DNA of 64,000 nucleotides from Arcobacteraceae bacterium (GTDB taxonomy: Bacteria; Campylobacterota; Campylobacteria; Campylobacterales; Arcobacteraceae): assembly GCA_048268245.1 (NCBI GenBank), contig JBLWVX010000002.1, positions 32,001 through 96,000 of the forward strand, written 5' to 3'. This document shows positions 230-45,399 of this stretch, one piece after another. Each line of letters opens with the position of its first letter. The stretch's first letter is position 1. Under the pieces are notes generated by a model that was given only the letters and a program-made list of their open reading frames with translations, was not told the DNA's origin and did no database searches. The position numbers and the translations under genes are program-made.

Positions 230-249
230 ATAGCATTAGAGTAGCATTT
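230..249 (+). promoter_or_regulatory. Direct-repeat box TAGCATT-N4-TAGCATT
   Basis: ATAGCATTAGAGTAGCATTT; near-identical copy at 26690-26709 (minus strand). Confidence 0.6.
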
Positions 250-261
250 TTATTTTTTTTA

Positions 262-270
262 TGATATAAT
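262..270 (+). promoter_or_regulatory. Extended -10 promoter TGATATAAT
   Basis: Matches the TGnTATAAT sigma70 element of Campylobacterota. Confidence 0.6.
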
Positions 271-277
271 CCTATTC

Positions 278-366
278 ATAAAACAAGAAGTTTTATCTTA
301 ATTATCTCTCCTTAGTTAAAAATTACGTAGCTGTAACAATTTTTTTCGAAGATGAAGCTTCTTTTT
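278..366 (+). ncRNA. Putative small regulatory RNA with anti-Shine-Dalgarno seed
   Basis: Starts 7-8 nt after the -10; 5' hairpin ATAAAAC/GTTTTAT (278-296), unpaired TATCTCTCCTTA (303-314), second imperfect hairpin, then a short GAAG/CTTC stem and U-tract; no ORF. Confidence 0.5.
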
Positions 367-522: not shown

Positions 523-2505
523 ATGATTAAGAATTCACAGTTTAATGAACTAGTAGAAAAAGCTCATTATATCAAAGTTTTATATGCTGAAGATGAACAT
601 CTTACAAGAGATACAATAGAAAACTTACTTAATATTATTTTCCAAGAAGTAATAGTTGCAAAAGACGGAGAAGATGCTTTAAAACTTTTTGAGAAGCATC
701 AAGATATTGACTTACTTATTACAGACATAAATATGCCTAAAATTAATGGTATTCAACTAGTAAAAAAAATAAATCCTGATCTTGCTACTATAATTGTTTC
801 AGCACATTCTGAAAGTAAATTTATGCTTGAAGCAATAAAACTTAATGTTGATAATTTTATATTAAAACCTTTTAAAGCACAACAACTTTTTGAAGTGGTA
901 AAAAAAGCTATTGATAAAACATCTCTAAAAAGACAAAATGAAAGAAATCTACTTATACTTAAACAATATCAAGAAATAACAAATAAAAGCTCTATTATTT
1001 CGAAAACTGATGCATCAGGAGTTATAACATTTGTAAATGAAAACTTTTGTGAAATTTCTGGTTACTCAAAAGAAGAACTTATAGGTAAAAGTCATAATGT
1101 TGTAAGACATCCGGATAATTCAAAAGAACTTTTTAAAGAACTTTGGCACACAATCAAAATAAAAAAAGAGCCATGGAGTGGGATTATAAAAAATCTTGCA
1201 AAAGATGGAAAGAGTTATTTTGTAAAATCAACTATAAAGCCACTTTTAGATCAAAACAATGAAGTTATAGAATACATGGCATTAAGAAATGATGTAACAG
1301 AAATCATGAGTGAGAAAAAACAACTAATTGCTTCTTTAGAATCTTATGAAAACTCTTTTTTAGCACTATTACAAATTGAGAATTTTGATATTTTAGATAA
1401 GTTTTATGATACTGCAACTGTTTATAAAATAGAAGAAGTATTTGAGGATTTAATAATAAGCCTTTTCCCAAAAAATAGTGAGCTATACGAAAAAATCTTT
1501 AAACTAGGTGATGGGCTTTTTGCTATTAGTAATAGTATGAAAAATATTGAAAAACAAAATATAAATATAGAACTTGAACTATTAACACTTATAAAAAACA
1601 CTAAAAATTCAACTATTAAATTTGATAATATTGAATATGATGTATCAATTGCAGTGAGTTATTGTTATGGAAATAAAAATGTATATGAAAATGCAAAATA
1701 TGGAATAGAAAAGGCTTCAGAAGATAATAAAAGCTTAATATTTGCAAATAATTTAGTTGAAGAAGCTCATGAAAGAGCACAAAAAAATATAGAAACAATC
1801 CATATGGTAAAAAAAGCCCTGGATAACTATAATATAGTATCTTACTTTCAACCAATTATTGAAAATAAAACAAAAAAGATTGCTAAATATGAGTCTTTAG
1901 TAAGACTTATTGATGAGAATGGCAAAACAATATCTCCTTACTTTTTCTTAGATGTTTCAAAAAAAGGAACATACTATACAAAAATTACAAATCGAGTAAT
2001 TGAGAGTTCTTTTAAAGTTTTAGACCATATAGAAAATAGTGTAAGTATCAATCTATCTGTTTTAGATATGGAGAATGAGGATATTAAAAATAAACTAATC
2101 GAGCTTACTTCAAGATCTCAATATAAAGGTAGAGTGATTTTTGAGATTCTAGAAAATGAAAATATAAAAGATTTTGATAGAGTGAAAAAATTTATTGCAA
2201 AAGTAAAAAAACTAGGTGATGTAAAAATTGCCATTGATGACTTTGGAAGTGGTTACTCAAACTTTGAGCGACTTTTAGAGTATACACCTGATATTTTAAA
2301 AATTGATGGAAGCCTAATAAAAAATATCGAAACTGATTCATATTGTAGAAATGTAGTAGAAACTATCGTAACTTTTGCAAAAAAACAAAATATTGAAACT
2401 ATTGCAGAGTTTGTGGAAAATGAAAATATTTATAATATATTAAATGAAATGGGGATTACATACTCTCAAGGTTACTACTTTGGTAAACCTGAGAAATTGA
2501 TATAA
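523..2505 (+). CDS. REC-PAS-degenerate GGDEF-EAL c-di-GMP phosphodiesterase response regulator
   Basis: REC (AEDE, LITDINMP, LKP), PAS (IISKTDASG..FVNENFCEISGY), EAL (FQPI, ESLVRL, DDFGSGYSN, QGYYFGKP). Confidence 0.9.
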   Translation: MIKNSQFNELVEKAHYIKVLYAEDEHLTRDTIENLLNIIFQEVIVAKDGEDALKLFEKHQDIDLLITDINMPKINGIQLVKKINPDLATIIVSAHSESKFMLEAIKLNVDNFILKPFKAQQLFEVVKKAIDKTSLKRQNERNLLILKQYQEITNKSSIISKTDASGVITFVNENFCEISGYSKEELIGKSHNVVRHPDNSKELFKELWHTIKIKKEPWSGIIKNLAKDGKSYFVKSTIKPLLDQNNEVIEYMALRNDVTEIMSEKKQLIASLESYENSFLALLQIENFDILDKFYDTATVYKIEEVFEDLIISLFPKNSELYEKIFKLGDGLFAISNSMKNIEKQNINIELELLTLIKNTKNSTIKFDNIEYDVSIAVSYCYGNKNVYENAKYGIEKASEDNKSLIFANNLVEEAHERAQKNIETIHMVKKALDNYNIVSYFQPIIENKTKKIAKYESLVRLIDENGKTISPYFFLDVSKKGTYYTKITNRVIESSFKVLDHIENSVSINLSVLDMENEDIKNKLIELTSRSQYKGRVIFEILENENIKDFDRVKKFIAKVKKLGDVKIAIDDFGSGYSNFERLLEYTPDILKIDGSLIKNIETDSYCRNVVETIVTFAKKQNIETIAEFVENENIYNILNEMGITYSQGYYFGKPEKLI

Positions 2506-17405: not shown

Positions 17406-20400
17406 TTATTTTTTAAGCTCTCTTGCTCCTATATTTCCATATCTGTGGTAAGAGTGAGAAACAGATTGTTCAATGAAGTAATTAAGAAGTTCTAATCTTC
17501 CTTCCATCATTGGTTTAGCTCTTACTATAAATGTAGTTGATTTATTAGCTTCTTTAAATACAGTAGGACTAACCTTTACAATATCAGAGTAAATAACTCT
17601 GTCATATGAAGAAATATTTTTCATCATTTTCTCTTCACTTTGCTCAACTAAACCATCTCTTGAAGTAAATAATTCAGTTTTGTTTGACTCTAAGAAATCT
17701 TTTACTAGATTATTGTTTTCAATTGAAACTTTAAAATGAACTCCAGCAACTCTTGCAGCAAGTATTCTTGAAACTGCTTCAAATAAAGTATCATCAGAAG
17801 ATACTCTAATTAATACATTTTCTAAAGGTATATATCTGAAATGATTATCTTCACCTCTTACATTACAATAATCTTTTTCTTGAGAAAACTCATTTTCATA
17901 ATTTGCATAATATGACTGTAATGCAACGCCTAATTTTTCAAAATCCTCTCTGTTATTATGAGTTTTTGCACAAGACTCAATAAAGCTTGCTAAATCAGAG
18001 TTATATCCTCTACTTACATTTGGTGTTTTAGTTTCAGTATAATCAACAAATTGAGTAATGTAATTGTAAATACCAACTTTTCTACCTGCACCAATTGCAG
18101 ATTTACCCATACCACCAAATGGTTGTCGAAGAACTATAGCACCTGTTGTTCCTCTATTTACATAAAGATTACCAGCTTTTAAGTTTGCTTTCCAGTATTC
18201 AACTTCTCTTTCATCAAGTGATTCAATACCTGAAGTTAATCCATATCCAGTTGAGTTTACAATCTCTACTGCATGTTTTAAATCTTTTGCTTTCATCACA
18301 GCTAAAACTGGTCCAAATAGCTCATTTTTATGAATAAAGTTACCTTCATCAACTCCCCACTTAATAGCAGGTTTTAACATAAATTCATTACCTTCTGCAT
18401 AAGAAGGCTCTAATGCCCACTCTTCATTTCCTTCAAGCTCATTAATTGCTTGTTTTAAAGCTCCACCTACTGGGTTTGCTAAAGTACCAATTCTATTAGA
18501 GAAATCCCAAACAGAACCAACACTCATAGATTTTGCTGTATCAACTAATGCTTTTCTAAATGACTTATCATTATAAACCTCTTCTTCCAATACAAGAAGT
18601 GAAGTTGCACTACATTTTTGTCCTGAGTTATTAAATGCAGATAAACATACATTTTTAACAGCTTGGTCTCTATCTGCCATATTTGTAACGATTGTTGCAT
18701 CTTTTCCACCAGTTTCAGCAGTTAAGAATAAATCAGGTCTTGTTTCTAACATATTATATGCAGTATCTTCACCACCTGTTAAAATTACAAAATCAACATC
18801 TTTGTTCGCGATAAGATGTTCACCTGCAAGTCTACCTGGACAAGGAACAAACTGTAAAACATTTTTAGAAATACCTGCATCCCAGAAACATTTACACATT
18901 TCATATGCAGTTAAAGCAGCAACTGAAGCAGGCTTGATAATTACAGTATTACCAGCAGCTAATGTAGAAGCAACACCACCTAAAGGAATAGCAACAGGGA
19001 AATTCCAAGGAGGTACAACTACACCAACACCTTTACCACTAAACTCTAAGTTTTCATATCTATCCCAATACTGTGCACTATGTGCATAGAATTCAATAAA
19101 ATCAACAGCCTCTGAAACTTCAACATCAGTTTCTGTAAAGATTTTACCAACCTCAGCAGCAGCAACACCAATTAAATCATCTCTTCTTTGTCTAACTTTA
19201 ATTGCCGCTTGTTTAAGCATAGCATGTCTTTGTTTATGAGATAAACTTCTCCATCCATCAACATCTTCTTTTGCAACTTCAACAGCTCTTTTTAAATCTT
19301 CAGCAGTAGCATTTGCAAATTTACCAGCTAAAACACCCTCTTTTACTTGAGACTTATCAATAGCTTCAACTACTTTTCTATCGCCAATTAAATCCTCACC
19401 CCCAACTACAACAGGAGCAACTTGATGTTGCGTGTCTTTTGAGAACTTCCATTTTTTTACAATATTTCTTGCCCACTCTTGGTTTGCAGGTAAAACAAAA
19501 TCAGTATCAGCTTCTGCATGATACTCACCTAAATCATAAGATGAACCATTAAAATCATCCCATTTCTCTTCTAATCTATTTTGTTGTCTTTTTGCACCTA
19601 CAAAAGATGTTTTTTCATTCTCAAAAGACTTTCTAAATAGTTGCTCTTGCATTTTCCAATCTCTTGAACCTACTTCAAGACCAAATGAGTATCTAATAAA
19701 GTTATTAGGACCTGTATTTTCATCAAGTCTTCTAACTAAATATGCAATTGCATTTGTAAATTGCTCTTTTGAAGCAGTTGGACCATATAAAATTGCATTT
19801 TTAGAAATCTCTTTTATTGCAAGTCTTGCAGACTCACTCATTCCTTCTAGCATCTCAATAGTATGATATTGTGAAGTATTATTTACTCTTGCTAATTCAA
19901 CAGCAAAAGCTTGTTCGAATAAGTTGTGAGAACCTGTTCCAACATGCATATATTTTGCATTTTCACTTTGAAGTGCATATCTAATCATTCTTTTATAGTT
20001 TGAGTCTGTATCACTTTTATCAGTATAAGTTACTAATTCCCAGTGCTTTTGAGAGGCTTCTGTTTCTTCCATCTCCATATTAGCCCCTTTTACAAGTCTA
20101 AATTTAATAGGACTTCCACCATTTTCAACTCTTGTCTTAGCCCATTGGCATAAATCTTTTTGAACTAAGAATGAATCTGGGATATAAGCTTGAAGTACAA
20201 TACCAGCATAGAAGTCTTTAAATTGTGGTAACTCTAAAGTTCTTTTAAACACCTCAACAGTAATATCTAAATCTCTATACTCTTCCATATCAAGATTGAT
20301 AAACTTATTAGATTTTGTTCCATCAGGTGCAGTGTATGGATATTTTTTTGCTTGTTCATAAATTCTAGTTAATTTTTTTACTAAAGTTTGAACTGTTCCT

Positions 20401-20981
20401 TCAAAGTTTAATGGATTAATTTGAGAATAAATAGTTGAAATTTTAATAGAAATATAATCAATATTTGGATTTTCTAAAGCTTTAAGATATTTTTCTATTC
20501 TTTCTTGGGCTTCTTCTTCTCCTAGTACTACTTCACCAATAAGGTTTACATTTATTCTAGTACCCTCTTCTCTTCTCATTTTAAGGTGTTTATTAAATGG
20601 CTCTTCTTCACCTTTTAAAACTACTGTTTTTGTATCATCTCTAATTTGATTAACAAACATAGGAACAGATAAATCAGGTAAGAATTTTCCAAAGTTTTTA
20701 AATAACCATAATAGAGTTTTATCTTTTGTTGTAAAGAAGTGAGCCATACCATGTTTTTCTAATAAAAATATGATTTGATCGGCTACTCTATCATTTGATT
20801 CACATCTAAAACATTGATCCATAAGCTCAATAAGTAATGCTTTATCTTCAGGATATTCAAGCATCTTATTCATTTTTTTATAAAACTCTCTATCATAATC
20901 ACTTACTAGCTCTGTTGCTCTACTTTGCCATTTTTGAGCTAACTTTATTGAAGATTCTATTAGTTCTTGTTCATTTTTCAT
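17406..20981 (-). CDS. putA: Bifunctional proline dehydrogenase / P5C dehydrogenase PutA (no N-terminal RHH domain)
   Basis: PRODH (DMEEY, RLVKGAN, YLVRRLDEN) plus ALDH (PWNFP, AETGGKD, GQKCSA, ELFGPVL). Confidence 0.96.
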   Translation of the reverse strand: MKNEQELIESSIKLAQKWQSRATELVSDYDREFYKKMNKMLEYPEDKALLIELMDQCFRCESNDRVADQIIFLLEKHGMAHFFTTKDKTLLWLFKNFGKFLPDLSVPMFVNQIRDDTKTVVLKGEEEPFNKHLKMRREEGTRINVNLIGEVVLGEEEAQERIEKYLKALENPNIDYISIKISTIYSQINPLNFEGTVQTLVKKLTRIYEQAKKYPYTAPDGTKSNKFINLDMEEYRDLDITVEVFKRTLELPQFKDFYAGIVLQAYIPDSFLVQKDLCQWAKTRVENGGSPIKFRLVKGANMEMEETEASQKHWELVTYTDKSDTDSNYKRMIRYALQSENAKYMHVGTGSHNLFEQAFAVELARVNNTSQYHTIEMLEGMSESARLAIKEISKNAILYGPTASKEQFTNAIAYLVRRLDENTGPNNFIRYSFGLEVGSRDWKMQEQLFRKSFENEKTSFVGAKRQQNRLEEKWDDFNGSSYDLGEYHAEADTDFVLPANQEWARNIVKKWKFSKDTQHQVAPVVVGGEDLIGDRKVVEAIDKSQVKEGVLAGKFANATAEDLKRAVEVAKEDVDGWRSLSHKQRHAMLKQAAIKVRQRRDDLIGVAAAEVGKIFTETDVEVSEAVDFIEFYAHSAQYWDRYENLEFSGKGVGVVVPPWNFPVAIPLGGVASTLAAGNTVIIKPASVAALTAYEMCKCFWDAGISKNVLQFVPCPGRLAGEHLIANKDVDFVILTGGEDTAYNMLETRPDLFLTAETGGKDATIVTNMADRDQAVKNVCLSAFNNSGQKCSATSLLVLEEEVYNDKSFRKALVDTAKSMSVGSVWDFSNRIGTLANPVGGALKQAINELEGNEEWALEPSYAEGNEFMLKPAIKWGVDEGNFIHKNELFGPVLAVMKAKDLKHAVEIVNSTGYGLTSGIESLDEREVEYWKANLKAGNLYVNRGTTGAIVLRQPFGGMGKSAIGAGRKVGIYNYITQFVDYTETKTPNVSRGYNSDLASFIESCAKTHNNREDFEKLGVALQSYYANYENEFSQEKDYCNVRGEDNHFRYIPLENVLIRVSSDDTLFEAVSRILAARVAGVHFKVSIENNNLVKDFLESNKTELFTSRDGLVEQSEEKMMKNISSYDRVIYSDIVKVSPTVFKEANKSTTFIVRAKPMMEGRLELLNYFIEQSVSHSYHRYGNIGARELKK

Positions 20982-21017
20982 CTATTTATCCTTAAAATTT
21001 ATTGTTTTTTAAATGAA

Positions 21018-21101
21018 TTTTAAGTAGCTTAGAGCGCACGCTTTTCATTTGTGCTCGTAAGAGGGGAGCAACCGCCAAGTATGCCCCTCTTGCTACTTAA
21101 A
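21018..21101. other. GC-rich three-stem structured element between livF and putA
   Basis: Outer TTTAAGTAGC/GCTACTTAAA stem enclosing GAGCGCA/TGTGCTC and AAGAGGGG/CCCCTCTT hairpins. Confidence 0.65.
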
Positions 21102-21119
21102 TATTTTTCTTCTTCTTAA

Positions 21120-21842
21120 TTAATGTTTTTTTCCTAAATATGCTTCTTGAATTGTTTCTGAATTTAATAACTCTTCTGCTGTTCCAGCATGAGTAATTTT
21201 TCCAACTTCAAGTACATAAGCTCTATCAGCTAACTTCAATGCAGCCTTTGCATTTTGTTCAACTAATAAAACAGTTACTCCACTTTGAGCGATTTCTTTT
21301 ACAGCTTTGAAAATTGCTTTAATCAAAATTGGAGCTAATCCAAGTGATGGTTCATCAAGGATTAAAAGTTTTGGTTTTGACATAATAGCTCTACCAATTG
21401 CTAACATTTGTTGCTCACCACCTGAAAGTGTTCCAGCAAGTTGTTTTCTTCTCTCTTTTAATCTTGGCAAAATGTCATAAATCCACTCTAGTGTTTCTTT
21501 ATCATGATCTTTTAAAGTATAAGCTCCCATAAGCAAGTTTTCTTCAACTGTAAGTGTTCCAAAAACTCTTCTTCCTTCTGGTGAATGACTCATACCTAAA
21601 GTTACAATATCATGAGCAGCAGTTGCAGTAATATCATTTTTATCAAAAACAATATGACCTGACTTTGCTTTTAAAAGTCCTGAAATTGTTCTAAGAGTAG
21701 TAGTTTTCCCAGCACCATTAGCTCCTAGAATTGTTACAACTTCACCACGTCTAACTTGTAAAGATATACCTTTGATAGCGGCAATTGCTCCATATGAAAC
21801 ATGAAGATCTTTAATATCCAGTAATACTTCATTATTTACCAT
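21120..21842 (-). CDS. livF: HAAT (liv-type) ABC transporter ATPase
   Basis: GANGAGKTT, LSGGEQQMLAIGR, DEPSLGLAP. Confidence 0.93.
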   Translation of the reverse strand: MVNNEVLLDIKDLHVSYGAIAAIKGISLQVRRGEVVTILGANGAGKTTTLRTISGLLKAKSGHIVFDKNDITATAAHDIVTLGMSHSPEGRRVFGTLTVEENLLMGAYTLKDHDKETLEWIYDILPRLKERRKQLAGTLSGGEQQMLAIGRAIMSKPKLLILDEPSLGLAPILIKAIFKAVKEIAQSGVTVLLVEQNAKAALKLADRAYVLEVGKITHAGTAEELLNSETIQEAYLGKKH

Positions 21843-22618
21843 TATTCATCCTCCTCATCATCTGAACCAATATAAGCTTCAAGAACCTTTGGATCATTTT
21901 GAACAAAACTTGGTTCACCTTGAGAAATCTCTTTACCAAAGTTAATAACTGTAATATAATCAGTTAAGTTCATAACCATATCCATATCATGTTCAATCAT
22001 CATAATCCCAAGACCCATTTCTTTAATCTTTTGAATAATTGCTGTTAACTCAATAGTTTCATTTTCATTAAGTCCTGCAGCTGGTTCATCTAAGATTAAA
22101 AGTTCAGGTTCAGCAGCTAAAGCTCTTGCCATCTCTACTTTTCTTTGAACTCCATAAGATAAATCACCTGTTGGATGCATTGCAAATTTAGTTAAACCAA
22201 AAAACTCCATAAGTTCTTCAACCTTTTCCCAATGCTTTTTCTCATCAGCTCTGTATGCAGATGTATGAACAATTGAGTGGTACCATTTTTGAGTTGATTT
22301 TGTATGACATCCAGCCATAATGTTTTCAGCCACACTCATCTCTTTAAATAGTCTAATATTTTGGAATGTTCTTAAAACTCCCCTTTGGGCAATTTTATGT
22401 GGACTCATTCCTGTAATATTTTCACCTTTATATTTAATGCTTCCTTTTTCAGGAGTATAAATACCAGTTACACAGTTAAAAAGTGTAGTTTTACCAGCAC
22501 CATTAGGTCCAATAATTCCATAAATCTGACCTGGTTTTACTTTGATTGTTAAATCATCAATTGCAACTAAACCATGGAAAAACTTTGAAACGTTTTCAAT
22601 CTCTAATACGTAATCCAT
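21842..22618 (-). CDS. livG: HAAT (liv-type) ABC transporter ATPase
   Basis: GPNGAGKTT, RTFQNIRLF, DEPAAGLN. Confidence 0.93.
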   Translation of the reverse strand: MDYVLEIENVSKFFHGLVAIDDLTIKVKPGQIYGIIGPNGAGKTTLFNCVTGIYTPEKGSIKYKGENITGMSPHKIAQRGVLRTFQNIRLFKEMSVAENIMAGCHTKSTQKWYHSIVHTSAYRADEKKHWEKVEELMEFFGLTKFAMHPTGDLSYGVQRKVEMARALAAEPELLILDEPAAGLNENETIELTAIIQKIKEMGLGIMMIEHDMDMVMNLTDYITVINFGKEISQGEPSFVQNDPKVLEAYIGSDDEEDE

Positions 22619-23580
22619 TATTTCTCTCCTTGGCTTTTATTTGCTTTTTCTTTAATAAATTTAGGCACAATTCCAAATTTAGCTGGCCATACACCATTTG
22701 GTCTTAAAATCATTGTTAATACCATTGCTGCACCAAAGATTAGATATCTAGCTTCATCAAATTCAGTAAATAACTCTGGTAATACAAACATTACAAATGT
22801 TCCTATGATAATACCAGGAAGTGAAGCAGAACCACCCACAAGTACAATAGCAAAGAACATTACAGATTGCATAAAGTTAAATGACTCAGGAGATACAGCT
22901 GAATACTGAATAGCAAACACTGAACCAGCAGCACCTGCAATAGCAGCACCTAAAGCAAAGGCAAATAATTTATAGAATGAAATATTAATTCCCATAGATT
23001 TTGCTGCAATCTCATCTTTATTGATATAGTATAATGCTCTACCAAATGCTGATGTATCTAAGTTTCTAATAATTAATAATGTAATTAAAAGTAAACCAAA
23101 TGCAATATAGTAAATTGCAGTATCAGACCATAACTCATATCCAAATACTCTTACTACATCAATACCAAAAATACCATTTGGACCACCTGTTAAACCAAAA
23201 ATATCATTTGATAAAACTTGTTCAAAAATAATATTAAATCCAATAGTCGCAACTAAAAGGTAATCCCCTCTTAAGTGAATAATTGGACCAGCAAGTAATA
23301 CTGCTACAATCATAGGAAATAAAATTGCAAACGGAATTGTTGCAATAATTTCTAGTCCATAATGTACATTTAAAATAGCTGTTGTATATGCACCAATACC
23401 AAAGAAAATAGCATGACCCATATTGAAAATACCAGCTCTTCCTAAAATAATATCTTGAGAAAAAGCAACAACTGCAAATACTAAAAAAGTAATACCAATT
23501 GATAACCATGCTGAATCAACTAAAAACGGAAAAACTGCCATTATTGCTACAAAGGCAAGTAAAATATTTCTATTAATCAT
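22618..23580 (-). CDS. livM: HAAT ABC transporter permease
   Basis: LRGDYLLVATIGF, LTGGPNGI; multiple TM helices. Confidence 0.9.
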   Translation of the reverse strand: MINRNILLAFVAIMAVFPFLVDSAWLSIGITFLVFAVVAFSQDIILGRAGIFNMGHAIFFGIGAYTTAILNVHYGLEIIATIPFAILFPMIVAVLLAGPIIHLRGDYLLVATIGFNIIFEQVLSNDIFGLTGGPNGIFGIDVVRVFGYELWSDTAIYYIAFGLLLITLLIIRNLDTSAFGRALYYINKDEIAAKSMGINISFYKLFAFALGAAIAGAAGSVFAIQYSAVSPESFNFMQSVMFFAIVLVGGSASLPGIIIGTFVMFVLPELFTEFDEARYLIFGAAMVLTMILRPNGVWPAKFGIVPKFIKEKANKSQGEK

Positions 23581-24482
23581 TATACTTTCTCCGCTGTTTT
23601 TTCACCAAGAATACCTGTAGGTCTAAAGATTAAAATTACAATTAACAGAATAAATGTAAACGTTTCAGCCCATTCAGTTGAAACATATCCTGAAATCATT
23701 GCATTAAATAACCCTAGTAATAATCCACCAAGCATTGCTCCTGGAATTGAACCAATTCCACCAATAATAGCTGCAATAAATGCATTTAAACCATAAAGCC
23801 ATCCCATATCAAATGTTAAACCTCTGTAGTAAATACCAATAAATAAACCACCTATAGCACCAAGCATAGAACCAATGATAAAAATAGTCATAATAATTCT
23901 ATTTACATTAATACCCATAAGCTTCGCTGCATCTTGATCAATTGCAGTTGCTCTAATAGCTGTTCCAACTTTTGTTTTATTAATAAAGATATATAATCCA
24001 ATCATTAAAACTGCTGACAATGCTAAAATCACTAACTGTGTAAATGAAATAACTACTGTTCCAAAAGTCCATGATGTATCTGGGAATACATTTGATGGGA
24101 AAATCTCCATATTTGGACCCCAAATCAGCATAATTCCATTTTGAATTACTAAAGATGCTCCAAGTGCTGAAACAACGGCACTTAACCTTGGTGCAGTTCT
24201 TAAAGGTCTATAAGCAAGACGCTCAAGAAGAACACCCACGAATGCTACTACCACTGCTGTTAAAGAAAATACAATTACAATGTTTACAATATTTAGTGCA
24301 TTTGAACCATAAAACTGTGTAAAAATAGTCAGTCCCACATAAGCAGAAAAGGCTACAAGGTCACCGTGTGCGAAGTTAATTAACCTCATCACACCGTAAA
24401 CCATTGTATAACCTAAAGCTACCAATGCATATAAACTTCCTATAGTTAAACCATTAATTAACTGTTGAAGAAAAATATCCAT
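23580..24482 (-). CDS. livH: HAAT ABC transporter permease
   Basis: QQLINGLTIGSLYALVALGYTMVYG..INFAHG. Confidence 0.93.
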   Translation of the reverse strand: MDIFLQQLINGLTIGSLYALVALGYTMVYGVMRLINFAHGDLVAFSAYVGLTIFTQFYGSNALNIVNIVIVFSLTAVVVAFVGVLLERLAYRPLRTAPRLSAVVSALGASLVIQNGIMLIWGPNMEIFPSNVFPDTSWTFGTVVISFTQLVILALSAVLMIGLYIFINKTKVGTAIRATAIDQDAAKLMGINVNRIIMTIFIIGSMLGAIGGLFIGIYYRGLTFDMGWLYGLNAFIAAIIGGIGSIPGAMLGGLLLGLFNAMISGYVSTEWAETFTFILLIVILIFRPTGILGEKTAEKV

Positions 24483-24497
24483 TTTTTACCTTAAAAT

Positions 24498-25619
24498 TTA
24501 TTGCCCTACTACTTTGTAAGAACCGTCTTTTTGGATGCTGTAAACCATAAATTTAGCACCAATTCTTTCACCATCATTTCTAAATGTTACAGGTCCTGTA
24601 ATACCTGGGTAATCTTTTAGAGTATGTAAGTAATCTGAAATCTTTTTAGTATCAAAAGATTTTGTTTGCTCAACACCATGCATAATAGCTCTTAATCCAT
24701 CGGCATTTACAACTGCCCAAATTGAAGGTGGCTTCATGTTATAAGTATCTTCATACATACCTAAATATTTTTTAGCCTCTTTGTATGGTAAGATATCTGG
24801 AGTTGGGAAGTTAATAAGTGTAGTTCCCTCTGCTGCTTTTCCTGCAAGTTTTAAGAAATCTGGGTTATCATTTGAATCACCACCGATGAAATCAGCATCA
24901 ATTCCTAACTGTGCTTGTTGAGCTCTTAATAAACCACCATCAGTATAGTAACCTGAATAATAAATAGCATCAGGGTTCATAGCTTTAATTTTAGTAAGCA
25001 TTGCTGTAAAGTTTTGAGTTCCTGATTTGATTTTACCTCTAAATACAACATTTCCACCAAGTTTTTTGATAGAAGCTTCTGTAGCATCACCAAGACCTGT
25101 TGAATATGAAGAATAATCAGATAAAACTACAATATTTTTATATTTTTTTGTATTTACCATATACTCAGCTGTAAAATCACTTTGTGCTGAATTTGGGAAT
25201 GAGTTTCTAAAGAAAGTCCAGTATTTTTTCTTAATTAAATCATCAGATGTACCATCTGAAGTTTGTAATACTTTACTTCTATAATATGTAGTTTGAGCTG
25301 CTTGTGTAGCTCCTGAAGTATAAGATCCAATTACTGCAAATACACCAGCGTTTACTAATTTCTTAGCACAAACAGCTGCTTTTTGAGCTTTTGCTTCATC
25401 ATCACAAGTGATAACTTCAATTTGCTTACCAAGTAATCCGCCTTGCTCATTTTTCTCATTTACAATTAACTTAACAAATTGATCAATTCCTTGACCTTCA
25501 TTTGCATATTTTCCAGTAATTGGAGCTTGTACTCCGATTTTTACAGTATCAGCAGCTACTAGTGAACTTGCAACTACAGCACTTAGTGCTAAAGCACCTG
25601 TTAATTTTTTAAAATTCAT
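24498..25619 (-). CDS. livK: HAAT ABC transporter substrate-binding protein (proline a plausible ligand from context)
   Basis: Signal peptide from ATG 25619 (RBS AAGGAGAG), VKIGVQAPITG, periplasmic binding protein type 1 pattern. Confidence 0.88.
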   Translation of the reverse strand: MNFKKLTGALALSAVVASSLVAADTVKIGVQAPITGKYANEGQGIDQFVKLIVNEKNEQGGLLGKQIEVITCDDEAKAQKAAVCAKKLVNAGVFAVIGSYTSGATQAAQTTYYRSKVLQTSDGTSDDLIKKKYWTFFRNSFPNSAQSDFTAEYMVNTKKYKNIVVLSDYSSYSTGLGDATEASIKKLGGNVVFRGKIKSGTQNFTAMLTKIKAMNPDAIYYSGYYTDGGLLRAQQAQLGIDADFIGGDSNDNPDFLKLAGKAAEGTTLINFPTPDILPYKEAKKYLGMYEDTYNMKPPSIWAVVNADGLRAIMHGVEQTKSFDTKKISDYLHTLKDYPGITGPVTFRNDGERIGAKFMVYSIQKDGSYKVVGQ

Positions 25620-25654
25620 ATATCTCTCCTTAAATTTTTTTAATTTTAACTCTT

Positions 25655-26314
25655 CTAAAAAGTAGGCTCTATAATATAGCAACCCACACACCATTCACCT
25701 ATGTTGTCTATTTTATTAATCTCGCCTCCTTTAAAACTTGATTTTAAATTTTTATGTGAGTAAACAATCTTATCAAATGCTTCAATTATCTCTTCAACTC
25801 TTTTTTCGCTCTTTTTTCTTGCTGTATTTGAAATATCTAAGTAAAATGCAAATACACCATAATCTAAAGTAGAGTCTTCTTTTTTATCTCTTGAAATCAT
25901 CTTACACATTGTTTCAACATCATTTTTATACTCTTCTTGTACGTTTCTTACACCATTTTTTATACTCATAACAACTCTTGAAATTGAGTCATTATCACTT
26001 TTATGCTCAAATCTTTCATCAAGTGTAAGACATATAACATCGGGAGTTAAATAGTGTTCTTTCATAAACTCTCTAAATGCATCTCTTTTAGGTAATGAAC
26101 ATCTTAAAATATCTGCAATAGTTGCATCTATGAAAATCTCTGGTGGATTTTGAAGTTTTGCTATTTCTTGTGATACATGAATTGTAAGAAACTTTGGTGG
26201 AGCATATGATAAGTATAACTCATCAGCTGTCCAAAATGAGTAGTTTTTTTTTGCTTCTTTTATTCCAGTCATCACTGCATCAATAACTTCATTTTTTGAA
26301 GGGAAGTTATTCAT
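25655..26314 (-). CDS. Hypothetical protein, possibly a degenerate PD-(D/E)xK-like fold
   Basis: ATG 26314 with GGAG RBS overlaps the stop of the upstream gene; fold call is by-eye inference. Confidence 0.75.
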   Translation of the reverse strand: MNNFPSKNEVIDAVMTGIKEAKKNYSFWTADELYLSYAPPKFLTIHVSQEIAKLQNPPEIFIDATIADILRCSLPKRDAFREFMKEHYLTPDVICLTLDERFEHKSDNDSISRVVMSIKNGVRNVQEEYKNDVETMCKMISRDKKEDSTLDYGVFAFYLDISNTARKKSEKRVEEIIEAFDKIVYSHKNLKSSFKGGEINKIDNIGEWCVGCYIIEPTF

Positions 26315-26546
26315 TATCATCTCCAACATAGTTTTCATCAACTTCTTGAATTATTCCACTTTCACAAAGAATATCTTCAATCAATCTATTTTTTGAAATA
26401 TTTAAAGACTGACTTAAAACAACTAAAGCATTATCTAGTCTTTTATCAATTTTGATAGTCAACTGAGATATTTCTTTTTTATTACTTTTTAAATGATTAT
26501 TAATAACCTTTTGGATTACTGTTCTTTTATTTTTTTGTTTTGCCAT
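26307..26546 (-). CDS. Ribbon-helix-helix-like DNA-binding protein
   Basis: SQLTIKID beta-strand pattern followed by two helices (KRLDNALVVLSQSLN-ISKNRLIEDIL). Confidence 0.7.
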   Translation of the reverse strand: MAKQKNKRTVIQKVINNHLKSNKKEISQLTIKIDKRLDNALVVLSQSLNISKNRLIEDILCESGIIQEVDENYVGDDNE

Positions 26547-26570
26547 CTTAAATTCTCTAAATAAATTTTA

Positions 26571-26589
26571 GTACTACTTTTAGTAGTAC
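26571..26589. promoter_or_regulatory. Perfect palindrome GTACTACT-TTT-AGTAGTAC, candidate operator
   Basis: 8-3-8 inverted repeat 25 bp upstream of the RHH gene. Confidence 0.6.
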
Positions 26590-26689
26590 CTTTTTTCATT
26601 TAGTCATTATTTCATAGCAAAACTTAACTGATTCTTAATTTTTATAGATAAATTATATACTTTTTAGACAATTGTTACAAAAAAGTTGC

Positions 26690-26709
26690 AAATGCTATTC
26701 TATTGCTAT
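26690..26709 (-). promoter_or_regulatory. Direct-repeat box TAGCAAT-N4-TAGCATT upstream of the RHH-liv-putA operon
   Basis: Minus strand ATAGCAATAGAATAGCATTT; TATAAT at 26657-26652. Confidence 0.6.
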
Positions 26710-26726: not shown

Positions 26727-27608
26727 CTATTTTGAGAATTTAAATTGTTGAATTACTAAACCTAAAACAATAGTACTTAAACCTATAACTGTAGATACGT
26801 ATATCTTCTCTCCAACAATAAAATATATAAATACTAAAGACAAAAATGGAGATATAAAAATTAGATTTGCTATTTTTGAAGTTGACGTTGCACTTTGCAT
26901 AGCTTTTAACCAAAACAAAAATGTAATACCCATTTCAAACATTCCCACATAACTTGCTGCTAAAATACCATTTAATGATGGCAAGTTTACTGGTTGTGTT
27001 AATAAAAAATAAACAATAATTATTGGAAGAGAAACTAAAAAGTTACTAAACAATCCAACAATAGGGTCAACTTTTGATTTTGTATTTAAAATCCAATACA
27101 TAGACCAAAGAACAGTAGATAATAAAGCTAAAAAAACTCCATCTAGATTTGAAAAGTTAAGTGAAAAAGGTTCACCTTTTGTTGAAATAATTAAAACCCC
27201 AAAATAACAAATGATACCTGCAACTATATCATTTATTGTAAGTTTCTGTTTTAAAAATATTACTGATAAAAAAGCTAACATCAATGCCCAAGTATAATTA
27301 ATAGCTTGAGCTTCTTGCGCAGGTAATAAATCATAGGCTTTAAATAAAACAACATAATATAAAAAAGGATTAATAAGTCCAAGCAAAAAAACTATTTTAA
27401 AGTTGTTTTTTATATGTTCTTTTACAAGAGCAAATTTCTTTTCATATGCTATTACTAAAGATAAAACTAAGGTAGAACTAATTGATGCATATAAAACTAG
27501 CTCATAGGGTGTTAAATAATCAAGTGAGATTTTAAAAGCAGTAGCAACTGTTGACCAAAAAAATATTGCTATTAGTGCATATTTATATGCTGTAGTTTGA
27601 GTATTAAT
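26727..27608 (-). CDS. DMT/EamA family transporter, probable ATT start codon
   Basis: Frame stays open 74 codons upstream of the ORF-track start and encodes AYKYALIAIFFWSTVATAFK; RBS AAAGGA 6 nt before ATT 27608. Confidence 0.85.
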   Translation of the reverse strand: MNTQTTAYKYALIAIFFWSTVATAFKISLDYLTPYELVLYASISSTLVLSLVIAYEKKFALVKEHIKNNFKIVFLLGLINPFLYYVVLFKAYDLLPAQEAQAINYTWALMLAFLSVIFLKQKLTINDIVAGIICYFGVLIISTKGEPFSLNFSNLDGVFLALLSTVLWSMYWILNTKSKVDPIVGLFSNFLVSLPIIIVYFLLTQPVNLPSLNGILAASYVGMFEMGITFLFWLKAMQSATSTSKIANLIFISPFLSLVFIYFIVGEKIYVSTVIGLSTIVLGLVIQQFKFSK

Positions 27609-42587: not shown

Positions 42588-42651
42588 AATTCTCTAATAA
42601 TTAAAATAACTCCTCCCTATTTTACCACACTGGGTAAATTTTTCACAAAAA

Positions 42652-42671
42652 ATAGCATAAACATAACATTT
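42652..42671 (+). promoter_or_regulatory. Weaker TAGCAT/TAACAT direct-repeat box upstream of petA
   Basis: ATAGCATAAACATAACATTT, 15/20 identity to the boxes at 230 and 26690; TATAAT at 42709-42714. Confidence 0.4.
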
Positions 42672-42750
42672 TATGATTCAAGTCAAATCATTTTAAGTAA
42701 GAAAACAATATAATATATGGATTTCAATCTAAAAAAAAAGGAAGCCAAAT

Positions 42751-43254
42751 ATGTCTAATGAAACTAATAGACGAGATTTTCTTGGTTATTCATTTGCTGC
42801 TGTTGCTGCAGTAGGTGGTGCTGCGTCGCTTGTTGGTATGAAGCAAGTATGGGATCCACTTCCAAGCGTATTAGCGGGTGGTTTTACAAAAGTAGAACTA
42901 GGTGAACTAAAAGCCGGAAATCCTGTTACAATTACTTGGAGAGGAAAACCAATTTTTCTTCTTAAAAAAACTGCTGAAATGAAAAATAATGAGAGAGATT
43001 TAGTAATCGGTGATGACAGATATACTGTTGCTATTGGATTATGTACTCACTTAGGTTGTATTCCAGCATGGAAAAAAGATAAATGGAAATGTGCATGTCA
43101 CGGTGGGGAATTTAACCCTTCTGCTGAACAAATCTTCGGACCTCCTCCAAGACCACTTGACTTACCTCCATTTAGTGTACAAGGAACTTCTATTACTTTA
43201 GGTGAAGAAGGACCAGAATACAAAAAAATCGCTGCTGCGATGGCAACGGCATAA
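42751..43254 (+). CDS. petA: Rieske Fe-S subunit of the bc1 complex
   Basis: Tat motif RRDFL, CTHLGC, CACHG. Confidence 0.97.
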   Translation: MSNETNRRDFLGYSFAAVAAVGGAASLVGMKQVWDPLPSVLAGGFTKVELGELKAGNPVTITWRGKPIFLLKKTAEMKNNERDLVIGDDRYTVAIGLCTHLGCIPAWKKDKWKCACHGGEFNPSAEQIFGPPPRPLDLPPFSVQGTSITLGEEGPEYKKIAAAMATA

Positions 43255-43264
43255 GGAGTAGTTT

Positions 43265-44515
43265 ATGGCAAAATTTGAAAAAGCTAACTCAGTTGGTGAG
43301 TGGTTAGATCAAAGACTTAATACTACAGCTTTAAACAAAGTTTTAATGACTGAGTATTGGATTCCAAAAGATATTAACTTCTTATGGGCAATGGGTGTAT
43401 TACTAGCTACTACATTTGGTATCTTAGTAGTTTCTGGTTTATTCTTAATGATGTACTACAAGCCAGATGTTGCTTTAGCGTTTGATTCTGTTAACTATAC
43501 AATTATGCAAGAAGTAGCATTTGGTTGGTTATTTAGACATATGCATGGTGTTGCTGCTTCTGTTGTATTCTTAATCATCTACATTCACATGTTTACAGGT
43601 ATCTACTATGGTTCTTATAAGCAAGGTAGAGAAATGATTTGGATTTCAGGTATGTTATTATTCATGACATTCTCTGCTGCTGGATTCTCTGGATATATGT
43701 TACCATGGGGACAAATGTCTTACTGGGCTGCAATGGTTATTACTAACTTATTTGGTGGTGTTCCAGTTATTGGTGATGCTTTAGTTGTATGGATTAGAGG
43801 TGACTTCAACGTTGCTGATGCTACATTAACTAGATTCTTCATGTTACACGTATTCTTATTACCTATTACTATTATGGGTATTATTGGGTTACACTTCTAC
43901 ACATTAAGAATTCCTCACGTTAATAACCAAAACTCTGATGAGTTTGATTTTGATGAAGAAGCTGAAAAATACTTAGCTGGTAACAAAAGAGAATCAAAAG
44001 TTATTCCTTTCTGGCCTGTATTTATTTCTAAAGATTTAGCTGTATTAGGTATTTTCTTAATCTTCTACTTCTACTTAGTATTCTTCCACTATAACTTTGC
44101 AATGGACCCAGTTAACTTCGATCCTGCTGATCCAATGGTAACTCCTGCGCATATTTACCCAGAGTGGTACTTCTTATGGTCATATGAAGTATTAAGAGGA
44201 TTCTTCTTTGATGTTGGACCTGTTAAGGCATTTGACATTGGATTAATTGCATTTGCATTTGCAAACGTTATCTTCTTAGTATTACCTTGGTTAGATAGAG
44301 ATCCAAAAATCTTACCAGCACATAAAAGACCTAAATTCTTCATTTGGTTCTGGATTTTAATGGCTGACTTAATTGTATTAACTGTATATGGAAAATTACC
44401 TCCAACAGGTGTAAATGCATGGGTTGGATTTGTAGTTGCTACATTATTCATCATTTTATTCCTTGTATTACCATTTATTACAAAAGCAGATGCTAAAAAG
44501 AGAGGAGATGCATAA
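43265..44515 (+). CDS. petB: Cytochrome b
   Basis: RHMHG, GYMLPWGQMSYW, PEWY. Confidence 0.97.
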   Translation: MAKFEKANSVGEWLDQRLNTTALNKVLMTEYWIPKDINFLWAMGVLLATTFGILVVSGLFLMMYYKPDVALAFDSVNYTIMQEVAFGWLFRHMHGVAASVVFLIIYIHMFTGIYYGSYKQGREMIWISGMLLFMTFSAAGFSGYMLPWGQMSYWAAMVITNLFGGVPVIGDALVVWIRGDFNVADATLTRFFMLHVFLLPITIMGIIGLHFYTLRIPHVNNQNSDEFDFDEEAEKYLAGNKRESKVIPFWPVFISKDLAVLGIFLIFYFYLVFFHYNFAMDPVNFDPADPMVTPAHIYPEWYFLWSYEVLRGFFFDVGPVKAFDIGLIAFAFANVIFLVLPWLDRDPKILPAHKRPKFFIWFWILMADLIVLTVYGKLPPTGVNAWVGFVVATLFIILFLVLPFITKADAKKRGDA

Positions 44516-45399
44516 TGAAAGAATTAAAAATTTTAGCAGTAGTTGTAGCATTAACGCTGGTAACTTACTGGGGAGTTGAGCCATTTGCTCACTATCAAAT
44601 GTACCCTCCTATAGAACCAGCTGATTTTAAATTCTCTGATGTTCAAGAAGACGTTAAAGATGTTAAAGCTTTAAGTGGTGATGCTACAAATGGTAAAACA
44701 TTAGTTACTACTAACTGTACAGCTTGTCACTCAATTAAAACTGAGGGATTCCCACAAGTTATGGATAATGCAAGTTCAGCAGCTGCCTATGGTGTTGTTC
44801 CACCAGATTTAAGTACTGCTGGATACCTTTATAATGCAGATTATTTAGCAGCATTTATTAAAAATCCTGCTAAAGCTTCTAAAGTTGAGCATAAGTTTGA
44901 AGATGGAAGAGTTCACCCAATGCCAGGTTATGGTTGGATGCAACCACAAGAAATTGCTGATATGGTAGCTTATTTACAATCAATTGCTCCAGAAGAAATG
45001 ACAAATAAAGCAGTATTTACTAATGCTTGTCAAAGATGTCACGGTATTAAATACGCTGATATGAAAAATGGAACAATGAGTGCATTTACTCCTGATTCAG
45101 ATATTAAAAAGTACATGGGTAAATTACCTCCTGATTTATCACAATACATTAGATCTAGAGGTGAAGGATACTTAACTACATTTATTAATAATCCACAAAA
45201 ACACCTTGAAGGTACTGCAATGCCTAGAGTTGGTTTAAATGAAGATTCTCAAAAGCAAGTTATTACTTACATGGAAGAAGTTGGTGATACAAGTAAAGAT
45301 GAAAGATCTGAATTAGGACCTAAATTCTTAATTTACTTTGTAATCTTTGCAATCTTCGCATTCTTATGGAAGAAAAAAATGTGGAGAGATGTTCATTAA
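44515..45399 (+). CDS. petC: Diheme cytochrome c1-type subunit
   Basis: CTACH and CQRCH, PPDLS twice, C-terminal TM. Confidence 0.93.
   Translation: MKELKILAVVVALTLVTYWGVEPFAHYQMYPPIEPADFKFSDVQEDVKDVKALSGDATNGKTLVTTNCTACHSIKTEGFPQVMDNASSAAAYGVVPPDLSTAGYLYNADYLAAFIKNPAKASKVEHKFEDGRVHPMPGYGWMQPQEIADMVAYLQSIAPEEMTNKAVFTNACQRCHGIKYADMKNGTMSAFTPDSDIKKYMGKLPPDLSQYIRSRGEGYLTTFINNPQKHLEGTAMPRVGLNEDSQKQVITYMEEVGDTSKDERSELGPKFLIYFVIFAIFAFLWKKKMWRDVH

Follow-up and report, generated by a model that had tools for sequence, protein, structure and literature searches.

A conserved direct-repeat box probably ties a candidate small RNA, an amino-acid/proline operon and acetate/lactate uptake genes into one two-component regulon in Arcobacteraceae

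The repeated box in the window and its conservation

The 64,000-nucleotide stretch of an Arcobacteraceae bacterium analysed here (the window, G000:C2:32001-96000 of host genome G000, which is 2.68 Mb in size, has 28% G+C and is 99.3% complete) carries the same box of two TAGCA-type direct repeats at two promoters, at site A in front of a candidate small RNA (sRNA) gene and at site B in front of an amino-acid uptake and proline catabolism operon (liv-putA). Comparison with relatives suggests that the sRNA, this operon and genes for acetate and lactate uptake are probably tied into one regulon under a carboxylate-sensing two-component system, and that one OmpR-type regulator acts at both promoters of the window is a prediction well supported by comparative genomics. 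The features of the two sites and their surroundings are as follows.

231..248, + strand: box A, TAGCATT-AGAG-TAGCATT, a pair of 7-bp direct repeats 11 bp apart, at the sRNA promoter
262..270, + strand: extended -10 element (TG-a-TATAAT) of the sRNA promoter, 18 nt past the TAGCA core, conserved in 6 same-genus loci
277..366, + strand: candidate sRNA of ~90 nt, with a 13-bp closing stem (286-298 with 350-362), a large loop and then a U-run; 5' end placed from the -10
305..315, + strand: CU-rich loop TCTCTCCTTAG, putative anti-Shine-Dalgarno seed, identical in 26/26 homologues and unique in the window
523..2505, + strand: REC-PAS-EAL gene (Pfam) downstream of the sRNA, with its own promoter-like TATAAT
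17406..25619, - strand: livJ-like binding protein, livH, livM, livG, livF and putA (proline dehydrogenase / P5C dehydrogenase), assigned by Pfam
25621..25632, - strand: ribosome-binding region of livJ, TAAGGAGAGATA, able to pair without mismatch over 12 nt with sRNA 304-315; the ATG follows one base on, at 25619-25617
25655..26341, - strand: orf228, conserved, family unknown, no Pfam or NCBIfam match, orthologues in 8/21 relatives
26307..26546, - strand: orf79, first gene of the operon, no Pfam or NCBIfam match, possibly a ribbon-helix-helix protein (a lead only)
26570..26590, - strand: palindromic or hairpin-forming element of the operon leader, GGTACTAC-TAAAA-GTAGTACT, kept in the alignment
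26652..26657, - strand: TATAAT -10 hexamer, 35 nt past the TAGCA core of box B
26691..26708, - strand: box B, TAGCAAT-AGAA-TAGCATT, upstream of the orf79-orf228-livJHMGF-putA operon

A preliminary description of this DNA had reported two nearly identical 20-mers, each upstream of a TATAAT hexamer, and the window search bore out its sequences, coordinates and distances. The 20-mer of site A, ATAGCATTAGAGTAGCATTT at 230-249 (+), and that of site B, ATAGCAATAGAATAGCATTT at 26709-26690 (-), share 18/20 bases; TATAAT follows the former after 15 nt (265-270, with TG in front at 262-263) and the latter after 32 nt (26657-26652). Site A is situated between a + strand open reading frame (ORF) ending near 150 and the downstream + strand gene, and site B between an EamA-family gene (26727-27386, -) and the minus-strand liv operon. 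The exact pattern TAGCAWT-N4-TAGCAWT was found twice in the window against 0.02 expected, a count reached by none of 100 shuffles. With two mismatches allowed, its 6 occurrences against 6.85 expected are at chance level, and the signal therefore resides in the exact core only.

Genome-wide, the lone half-site TAGCAWT shows no non-coding enrichment, as 144 of its 1632 copies (8.8%) lie outside long ORFs, where 10.1% of the DNA is found. A comparison of motif frequency in coding and promoter DNA had been proposed as a check on the box, and the exact pair proved to be concentrated outside ORFs: TAGCA-N6-TAGCA occurs 13 times, 11 of them outside ORFs of at least 100 amino acids (binomial P = 7e-10). 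Among non-coding TAGCA pairs at spacings from 5 to 40 there is a single peak, at 11 (11 pairs against 0.53 expected; Poisson P = 1.5e-11), and the other 35 spacings hold 0-4 pairs each, with a mean of 1.06.

Phylogenetic footprinting, likewise suggested beforehand, found the box conserved at both promoters. Upstream of orthologues of the REC-PAS-EAL gene, the exact box of site A is present in 6/7 loci, the exception belonging to another genus and also being without the sRNA, while an exact TAGCA-N6-TAGCA stands upstream of the sRNA itself in all 30 loci fetched from three genera. At site B, 8 of the 9 regions in front of orf228 orthologues carry the exact box, counting a second, paralogous copy of the locus in G010, and so do all four further loci of genera g6 and g17, where it lies ~1 kb upstream of livJ, giving 12/13 liv loci in total. 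In alignments of both sites the box is conserved and the flanks diverge. The recurrence of the box is highly non-random and marks a conserved, predicted regulator-binding site, and the earlier proposal that the sRNA and liv-putA promoters carry instances of one operator is upheld by these comparisons.

The neighbouring two-component system and the predicted regulon

Two of the eleven non-coding sites of the host genome are sites A and B. Four others lie within 13 kb of contig C1, directly past the genes of a histidine kinase (HK1) and a response regulator (RR1). The boxes other than A and B stand at the following genes.

Contig C1 cluster: one box before a two-subunit sodium:solute symporter (DUF4212/TIGR03647 small subunit and VC_2705-family large subunit), followed by DUF294 and exonuclease genes
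Contig C1 cluster: two boxes before two yjcH(DUF485)-actP operons
Contig C1 cluster: one box before pta-ackA
Elsewhere: before an amino-acid ABC transporter (SBP_bac_3 and permeases)
Elsewhere: before the L-lactate permease gene lctP
Elsewhere: at an aminotransferase / AraC-MFS divergent pair
Elsewhere, G000:C12:21074-21089 (L005 3075-3090): before a REC-PAS-HD-GYP gene, with PAS and MCP genes behind it
Elsewhere: before a gene of unknown function (256 amino acids), divergent from a DUF1104 gene that has a response-regulator/histidine-kinase pair behind it

RR1 (G000:C1:36376-37035) is a protein of 220 amino acids with REC (PF00072) and Trans_reg_C (PF00486) domains by Pfam, and its best solved relatives are DrrD, BasR/PmrA and PhoP-type regulators of the OmpR/PhoB family. 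HK1, its neighbour kinase, has 527 amino acids and a periplasmic sCache_2 sensor domain. The four-box cluster beside RR1 recurs, among the matches listed, in G001, G002, G003, G004, G007 and G010. Across 80 loci with RR1 relatives, taken from named Arcobacteraceae genomes and metagenome-assembled genomes, an exact box lies at most 350 nt past the RR1 stop codon in 70, reading TGCTA toward the downstream symporter gene in every case; the rest of those 80 loci, 589,963 nt of flank, hold only one exact box. Three of the ten loci lacking an exact box have a one-mismatch box at the same place, and the other seven, including the A. butzleri-like ones, have a different downstream gene. The earlier expectation that 11-bp direct repeats would belong to an OmpR/PhoB-type regulator thus found a fitting protein, with a REC and Trans_reg_C architecture, beside four boxes and with a box after its gene in most relatives. 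Directly upstream of the HK1 gene, tRNA-like sequences were noticed by eye as a cluster (L147 1850-2250; G000:C1:34350-34750).

The promoter geometry at these genes is that of a well-known design. The E. coli pho box consists of two 7-bp direct repeats (half-site CTGTCAT) with 11-bp periodicity; it stands in for the -35 element and ends ~10 nt short of the -10. Past each of the 70 boxes next to RR1, a -10 hexamer agreeing with TATAAT in 5/6 bases or more begins at exactly 11 nt. At the core promoters (DUF4212-SSF, pta-ackA, lctP and the amino-acid ABC transporter) the box reads TGCTA-N6-TGCTA toward the gene, and in the host genome its distance to the -10 is 11 nt at pta-ackA, the ABC transporter and AraC, and 9 nt at lctP. 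The core-promoter box would therefore take the place of the -35 element, which implies an OmpR/PhoB-type activator, activation being predicted here because the tandem box replaces the -35 as in the pho box. Since the box adjoins RR1 in 70/80 loci with this pho-box-like spacing to the -10, RR1 is its probable binder. In seven genomes (L009 2199-2214, L010-L015) the symporter promoter carries a second, one-mismatch box, TAG[T/G]A-N6-TAGCA, 50 bp upstream of the exact one, which suggests cooperative binding of two dimers.

Sites A and B are built differently. Together with the box of the REC-PAS-HD-GYP gene, which lies 50 nt from its -10, they have a common orientation and flank, TAGCATTT, unlike the SSF box. 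At the sRNA loci, 18 nt separate the TAGCA core from the -10 in g1, as against 9 nt in g6 and 20 nt in g17, which makes steps of about one helical turn.

A paralogue of RR1, RR2, gives a second view of the repeat. It is 56% identical to RR1, has a nearly identical recognition helix and is paired with a FIST-domain kinase, and in six genomes, belonging to three genera, its own kinase gene is preceded by a tandem array of four TAGC[C/G/T/A] repeats spaced 11 bp apart. In the host genome this array, TAGC[G/C/C/A], lies at G000:C1:179990-180030 (L145 3988-4030) between an aldehyde dehydrogenase gene and the FIST-domain kinase / RR2 operon, and it is probably the operator of the RR2 two-component system. 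As RR2 has a TAGC array of its own and a near-identical recognition helix, the clade of RR1 and RR2 appears to go with TAGC-type repeats.

The genes behind the boxes, together with published fitness data, place small carboxylates at the centre of the predicted regulon. The large subunit of the symporter scores 796 bits against the VC_2705-family model (cut-off 321), and fitness data in the part of bioRxiv 10.1101/072470 concerned with these proteins tie DUF4212-SSF transporters to the use of lactate and D-alanine. The centre of the predicted regulon is uptake of acetate, lactate and other monocarboxylates plus pta-ackA, and amino-acid uptake and proline catabolism are attached to it. The preliminary description had proposed a regulon for proline and amino-acid uptake, and this stands in so far as liv-putA and the amino-acid ABC transporter carry boxes; it proved too narrow, as the core consists of carboxylate uptake and pta-ackA. 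The DUF294 genes (cNMP-binding, CBS and nucleotidyltransferase domains) and RNase T-like exonuclease genes occur in two copies after symporter genes (L001 4416-6922 and 11605-14059), and fitness data in bioRxiv 10.1101/072470 link this gene pairing to expression of DUF4212-SSF transporters. The box in front of the HD-GYP gene and the position of the box-driven sRNA just upstream of a REC-PAS-EAL gene in genus g1 suggest a tie to cyclic di-GMP (c-di-GMP) turnover or chemotaxis.

Of the 15 best matrix matches outside the training set, all with one mismatch, 9 are non-coding. Their neighbours are mixed (a porin, sufB, the hydrogenase small subunit, a GGDEF gene, petABC, sulfide dehydrogenase and sdh cytochrome b), and one-mismatch sites were left uncounted as regulon members. 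One such box, TAGCA-N6-TAACA, lies in the window at 42649-42672 (+), 79 nt upstream of a Rieske / cytochrome b / cytochrome c1 operon (42751-45399).

The candidate small RNA and its predicted pairing with livJ

Behind box A, the ~90 nt past the -10 are far better conserved than their surroundings in a same-genus alignment of 6 loci and fold at -17.9 kcal/mol (z = -3.1) into a stem of 13-15 bp. Across 26 aligned homologues, the 13 pairs of the stem show one-sided A-U/G-U changes that all preserve pairing, and no double compensatory changes. The REC-PAS-EAL gene follows in only 6/30 loci, all of genus g1, and the downstream gene differs between genera, so that the candidate sRNA is not a leader of that gene. 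With its own promoter, its stem and U-run, its conservation apart from the neighbouring gene and its invariant seed, the element qualifies as a candidate independent, trans-acting sRNA, in agreement with the first description. It is single-copy in the genome. No match at gathering score was obtained for the window in Rfam 15, and a search around the sRNA and the liv leader at E up to 1 gave nothing useful, the only match by the sRNA being one of 15 bits elsewhere on the other strand. The candidate sRNA forms a new family, one unmatched in Rfam. The sections of PMC6429828 that treat Arcobacter sp. L describe its motifs ffRNA-2 and HRC-4 as having no fixed gene context, and an unnamed entry for this sRNA may exist in that work; the TIGR03647 riboswitch candidate given in the same paper comes from another genome (HIMB5).

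Contigs from RNA libraries of relatives cover positions 268-492 (X3) and 297-370 (X5), which is a weak hint of expression, as contigs cannot prove transcription or transcript ends; likewise the gap before 268 in the X3 contig is no evidence for the start of the sRNA. A contig from a wastewater library (X1 record 2, window 281-325) has the sRNA core with a different promoter and 3' part and represents a more distant homologue.

BLAST matches to the sRNA occur in 70 of the 184 family genomes, in all members of g1 (5/5), g17 (44/44), g6 (11/11) and g28 (2/2); seven weak matches from other genera do not extend over the seed and are likely to be spurious. The sRNA is confined to genera in which RR1 is found. 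RR1 (E <= 1e-85) is more widespread, being found in 122/184 genomes, including eleven genera beyond those with the sRNA. In the four sRNA genera 57 of 63 genomes have an intact RR1, and in the seven genera without RR1 the seed region is absent from all 55 genomes. Since the spread of RR1 exceeds that of the sRNA, the latter looks like a lineage-specific addition to an older RR1 regulon.

The loop region of the sRNA (298-322) was compared with 2400 predicted start regions, ranked by perfect-match length; a ranking by RNAduplex was set aside as crude because of long interior loops. Perfect complementarity of at least 12 nt is found at 6/2400 start regions, livJ among them, and of at least 11 nt at 13/2400. 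Three of these 13 belong to box-controlled operons, namely livJ, the second permease gene of the ABC transporter and the first yjcH (P ~7e-4 for 35 regulon genes in a post-hoc test), and the other top candidates include citrate synthase, an aminotransferase and a sodium:alanine symporter as well as amino-acid and solute binding proteins. The livJ match is kept in ten genomes of three genera: in the series G000 to G004 plus G010 it measures 12, 12, 12, 11, 9 and 11 nt, in two more genomes of g6 it spans 12 and 10 nt, and the two g17 genomes compared have 13 nt each. Two caveats apply: the start codons of the 2400-gene set were picked heuristically, and the livJ pairing covers a strong Shine-Dalgarno sequence that is conserved for its own reasons.

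As the box at the sRNA, the box at the liv operon and the pairing between sRNA and livJ are all conserved in sequence, a feed-forward loop of regulator, sRNA and target, as first suggested, is plausible, with the odds leaning somewhat against it. Its more explicit form, which we advance tentatively, is an incoherent loop in which the carboxylate-sensing system would drive the transporter operons for acetate, lactate and amino acids together with the anti-Shine-Dalgarno sRNA, and the sRNA would repress livJ and other amino-acid transporter mRNAs, part of them from within the regulon. If true, such a circuit would order the use of organic acids versus amino acids, a role functionally comparable to that of GcvB or Spot 42. 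The phylum Campylobacterota is generally held to lack Hfq.

The liv-putA operon may contain a regulator of its own. A search with atlas features for orf79 returned, as second match, a cluster with RHH_1 in 84% of its members (score 0.94), and in the palindrome of the operon leader a C-G pair is changed to G-U in some relatives. PutA of E. coli carries a DNA-binding domain, and by analogy orf79 may be a stand-alone counterpart of that domain, with the leader palindrome as its operator.

Binding model, rival readings and known systems

The model that we favour, with a probability of about 0.7, is that the box is an Arcobacteraceae regulon operator bound by RR1 after phosphorylation by HK1, and that RR1 also drives or modulates the sRNA and liv-putA. 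Motif, non-coding bias, conservation, linkage to RR1 and promoter geometry are taken from the sequence; from these we infer that RR1 is the binder, what it responds to, in which direction it regulates sites A and B, and that the sRNA acts on livJ. HK1 would sense, through its periplasmic sCache_2 domain, a small carboxylate (probably acetate, lactate or pyruvate), a signal suggested by the sensor domain family and the target genes. It would then phosphorylate RR1, which would bind the two TAGCA(W)(T) half-sites as a head-to-tail dimer, activate the core promoters from a box in the -35 place, and drive or modulate the sRNA and the amino-acid/proline operon from inverted, more distant boxes. Finally, the invariant loop of the sRNA would pair with the ribosome-binding sites of livJ and other amino-acid transporter mRNAs, closing the loop.

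Several observations weigh against this model. Relative to the 70/70 RR1-adjacent promoters, the box of sites A and B points the opposite way, lies farther upstream and stands at a variable distance from the -10; repression at the sRNA promoter is conceivable too, because the extended -10 there needs no -35. OmpR/PhoB-type activation from variable positions and in both orientations is known, as for PhoP. Five draft genomes (82-94% complete) keep the sRNA and an exact box and yielded no RR1; the four of them that were re-examined (all but G183) hold only paralogues of 55% identity. The complete genome G059 keeps the sRNA, and its RR1 is broken into two overlapping parts interrupted by stops (G059:C1:642642-643297). 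Genomes without RR1 hold 4-10 TAGCA-N6-TAGCA matches, a number that pools coding and non-coding DNA, and the control pattern used for such counts in relatives, which contains CG, is ill matched. Lastly, RR1, RR2 and a further paralogue, RR3, have nearly the same recognition helix, and RR3 lies 2.5-7 kb from a TAGCA box, TAGCATTAAACTAGCA, in six genomes (G000, G001, G002, G003, G004 and G010).

Perhaps, then, sites A and B are bound by RR3 (C3:95837-96481), alone or together with RR1, in response to an intracellular signal of an amino-acid type instead of extracellular carboxylate, as RR3 is paired with a FIST-domain kinase and as these sites and the HD-GYP box stand apart from the SSF box in orientation and flank. 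We consider this unlikely, although RR3 is a serious competitor for these two sites. No box lies directly beside the genes of RR3 and its kinase (HK3), and the actP boxes within the RR1 cluster are also of the TAGCATT type, the one in G003, TAGCATTAGAGTAGCA, being identical to the core of box A. RR2 furthermore goes with TAGCC and TAGCG repeats, and paralogues can therefore differ at position 5, so that the fifth base of the repeat may set specificity among them. A quite improbable alternative is that an unrelated transcription factor binds the box and that the linkage to RR1 reflects conserved gene order with the SSF symporter operon. Co-location alone is no proof of binding, and the five drafts keeping box and sRNA would fit such a factor; the 11-bp tandem repeats 11 nt before the -10 are instead an OmpR/PhoB-type signature, RR2 has a TAGC-type array at its own operon, and the box is kept next to RR1 in the large majority of loci.

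The preliminary description had also noted a resemblance to ArcA, whose box in E. coli is made of direct repeats at 11-bp spacing with a TGTTA half-site. The design is the same and 4/5 core bases are common to both, and ArcA of E. coli also controls lactate, acetate and TCA genes; even so, binding by an ArcA-like redox regulator is very improbable, and the resemblance did not hold further. Compared with NCBIfam equivalog models, RR1 reaches no cut-off, and it is therefore not considered an orthologue of any named regulator, ArcA, CreB and PhoB included; ArcA is not among its 25 best models, although no genome-wide search for a separate ArcA was made, and the ArcA receiver is the weakest PDB match listed for RR1 (E = 6e-11). 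The sCache_2 sensor of HK1 is periplasmic, unlike ArcB, and the half-site is TGCTA, not TGTTA, in the 11 non-coding sites, the 70 RR1-adjacent boxes and the 30 sRNA boxes, all of which were selected by that core. The binder of the box is probably RR1, not ArcA. That the repeat is instead the promoter of an alternative sigma factor, with TGCTA-N6-TGCTA loosely resembling the -24/-12 elements of sigma-54, is hardly credible and was rejected. The GC-N9-GC register of the -24/-12 elements agrees with repeats 11 bp apart; the upstream repeat nonetheless has no GG such as the -24 element carries, a sigma-70 -10 hexamer follows all 70 RR1-adjacent boxes at an invariable 11 nt, and no Sigma54_DBD (PF04552) was found in the 99.3%-complete genome, while control genomes gave matches. 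A passage of PMC2147049 likewise reports A. butzleri to be without RpoN.

Full-text literature searches found no description of this two-component system, operator or sRNA, and very little is known of how Arcobacteraceae regulate their genes. What emerges is a regulon open to testing, with a defined operator, a named candidate regulator and sensor, and a widespread candidate new sRNA family with an invariant seed. Its predicted targets are about eleven promoters, for acetate, lactate and amino-acid/proline uptake, pta-ackA and two genes of c-di-GMP phosphodiesterase type. In addition, the three genera with a box 9, 18 or 20 nt before the -10 of one sRNA gene provide ready-made variants for the study of orientation and spacing in an OmpR-type activator.

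Each part of the proposed system has known counterparts. The box 11 nt before the -10 in 70/70 RR1-adjacent promoters and the REC plus winged-helix architecture of RR1 recall PhoB and the pho box. Unlike that system, the half-site is TAGCAWT, the genes serve carboxylate and amino-acid uptake rather than phosphate, the boxes at sites A and B are inverted and farther upstream, and RR1, at 73 bits, does not reach the PhoB cut-off of 296. CreBC recognises the cre tag TTCAC-N6-TTCAC, and its regulon includes ackA-pta. Like the present system, it combines direct repeats of 5 bp, separated by 6 bp, with a regulator of the OmpR family and a link to carbon source and pta-ackA; half-site and sensor domain differ, and RR1, at 78 bits, stays below the CreB cut-off of 273.

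Loops of regulator, sRNA and target are known for OmpR with OmrA/B and MicF, and for GcvA and GcvB acting on amino-acid transporters. As in these, one factor would drive both the sRNA and the operon with which it pairs, and the predicted targets are rich in amino-acid transporters. The candidate sRNA differs from OmrA/B, MicF and GcvB in having no Rfam match and in presenting a CU-rich anti-Shine-Dalgarno seed within a 13-bp closing stem. The nearest described analogue of the two-component system is MctS/MctR of Rhizobium leguminosarum, for which a section of PMC9100948 describes a Cache2 kinase and a response regulator that are encoded beside, and control, the SSF-family monocarboxylate permease MctP. 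A Cache-type kinase and a regulator beside an SSF carboxylate transporter are common to both. HK1 is not an orthologue of MctS, as its match to the NCBIfam MctS model covers the sensor only (92 bits against a cut-off of 700), and the transporter here is a two-subunit protein of the DUF4212 and VC_2705 families. In further distinction from MctS/MctR, the predicted regulon is much larger and includes an sRNA.

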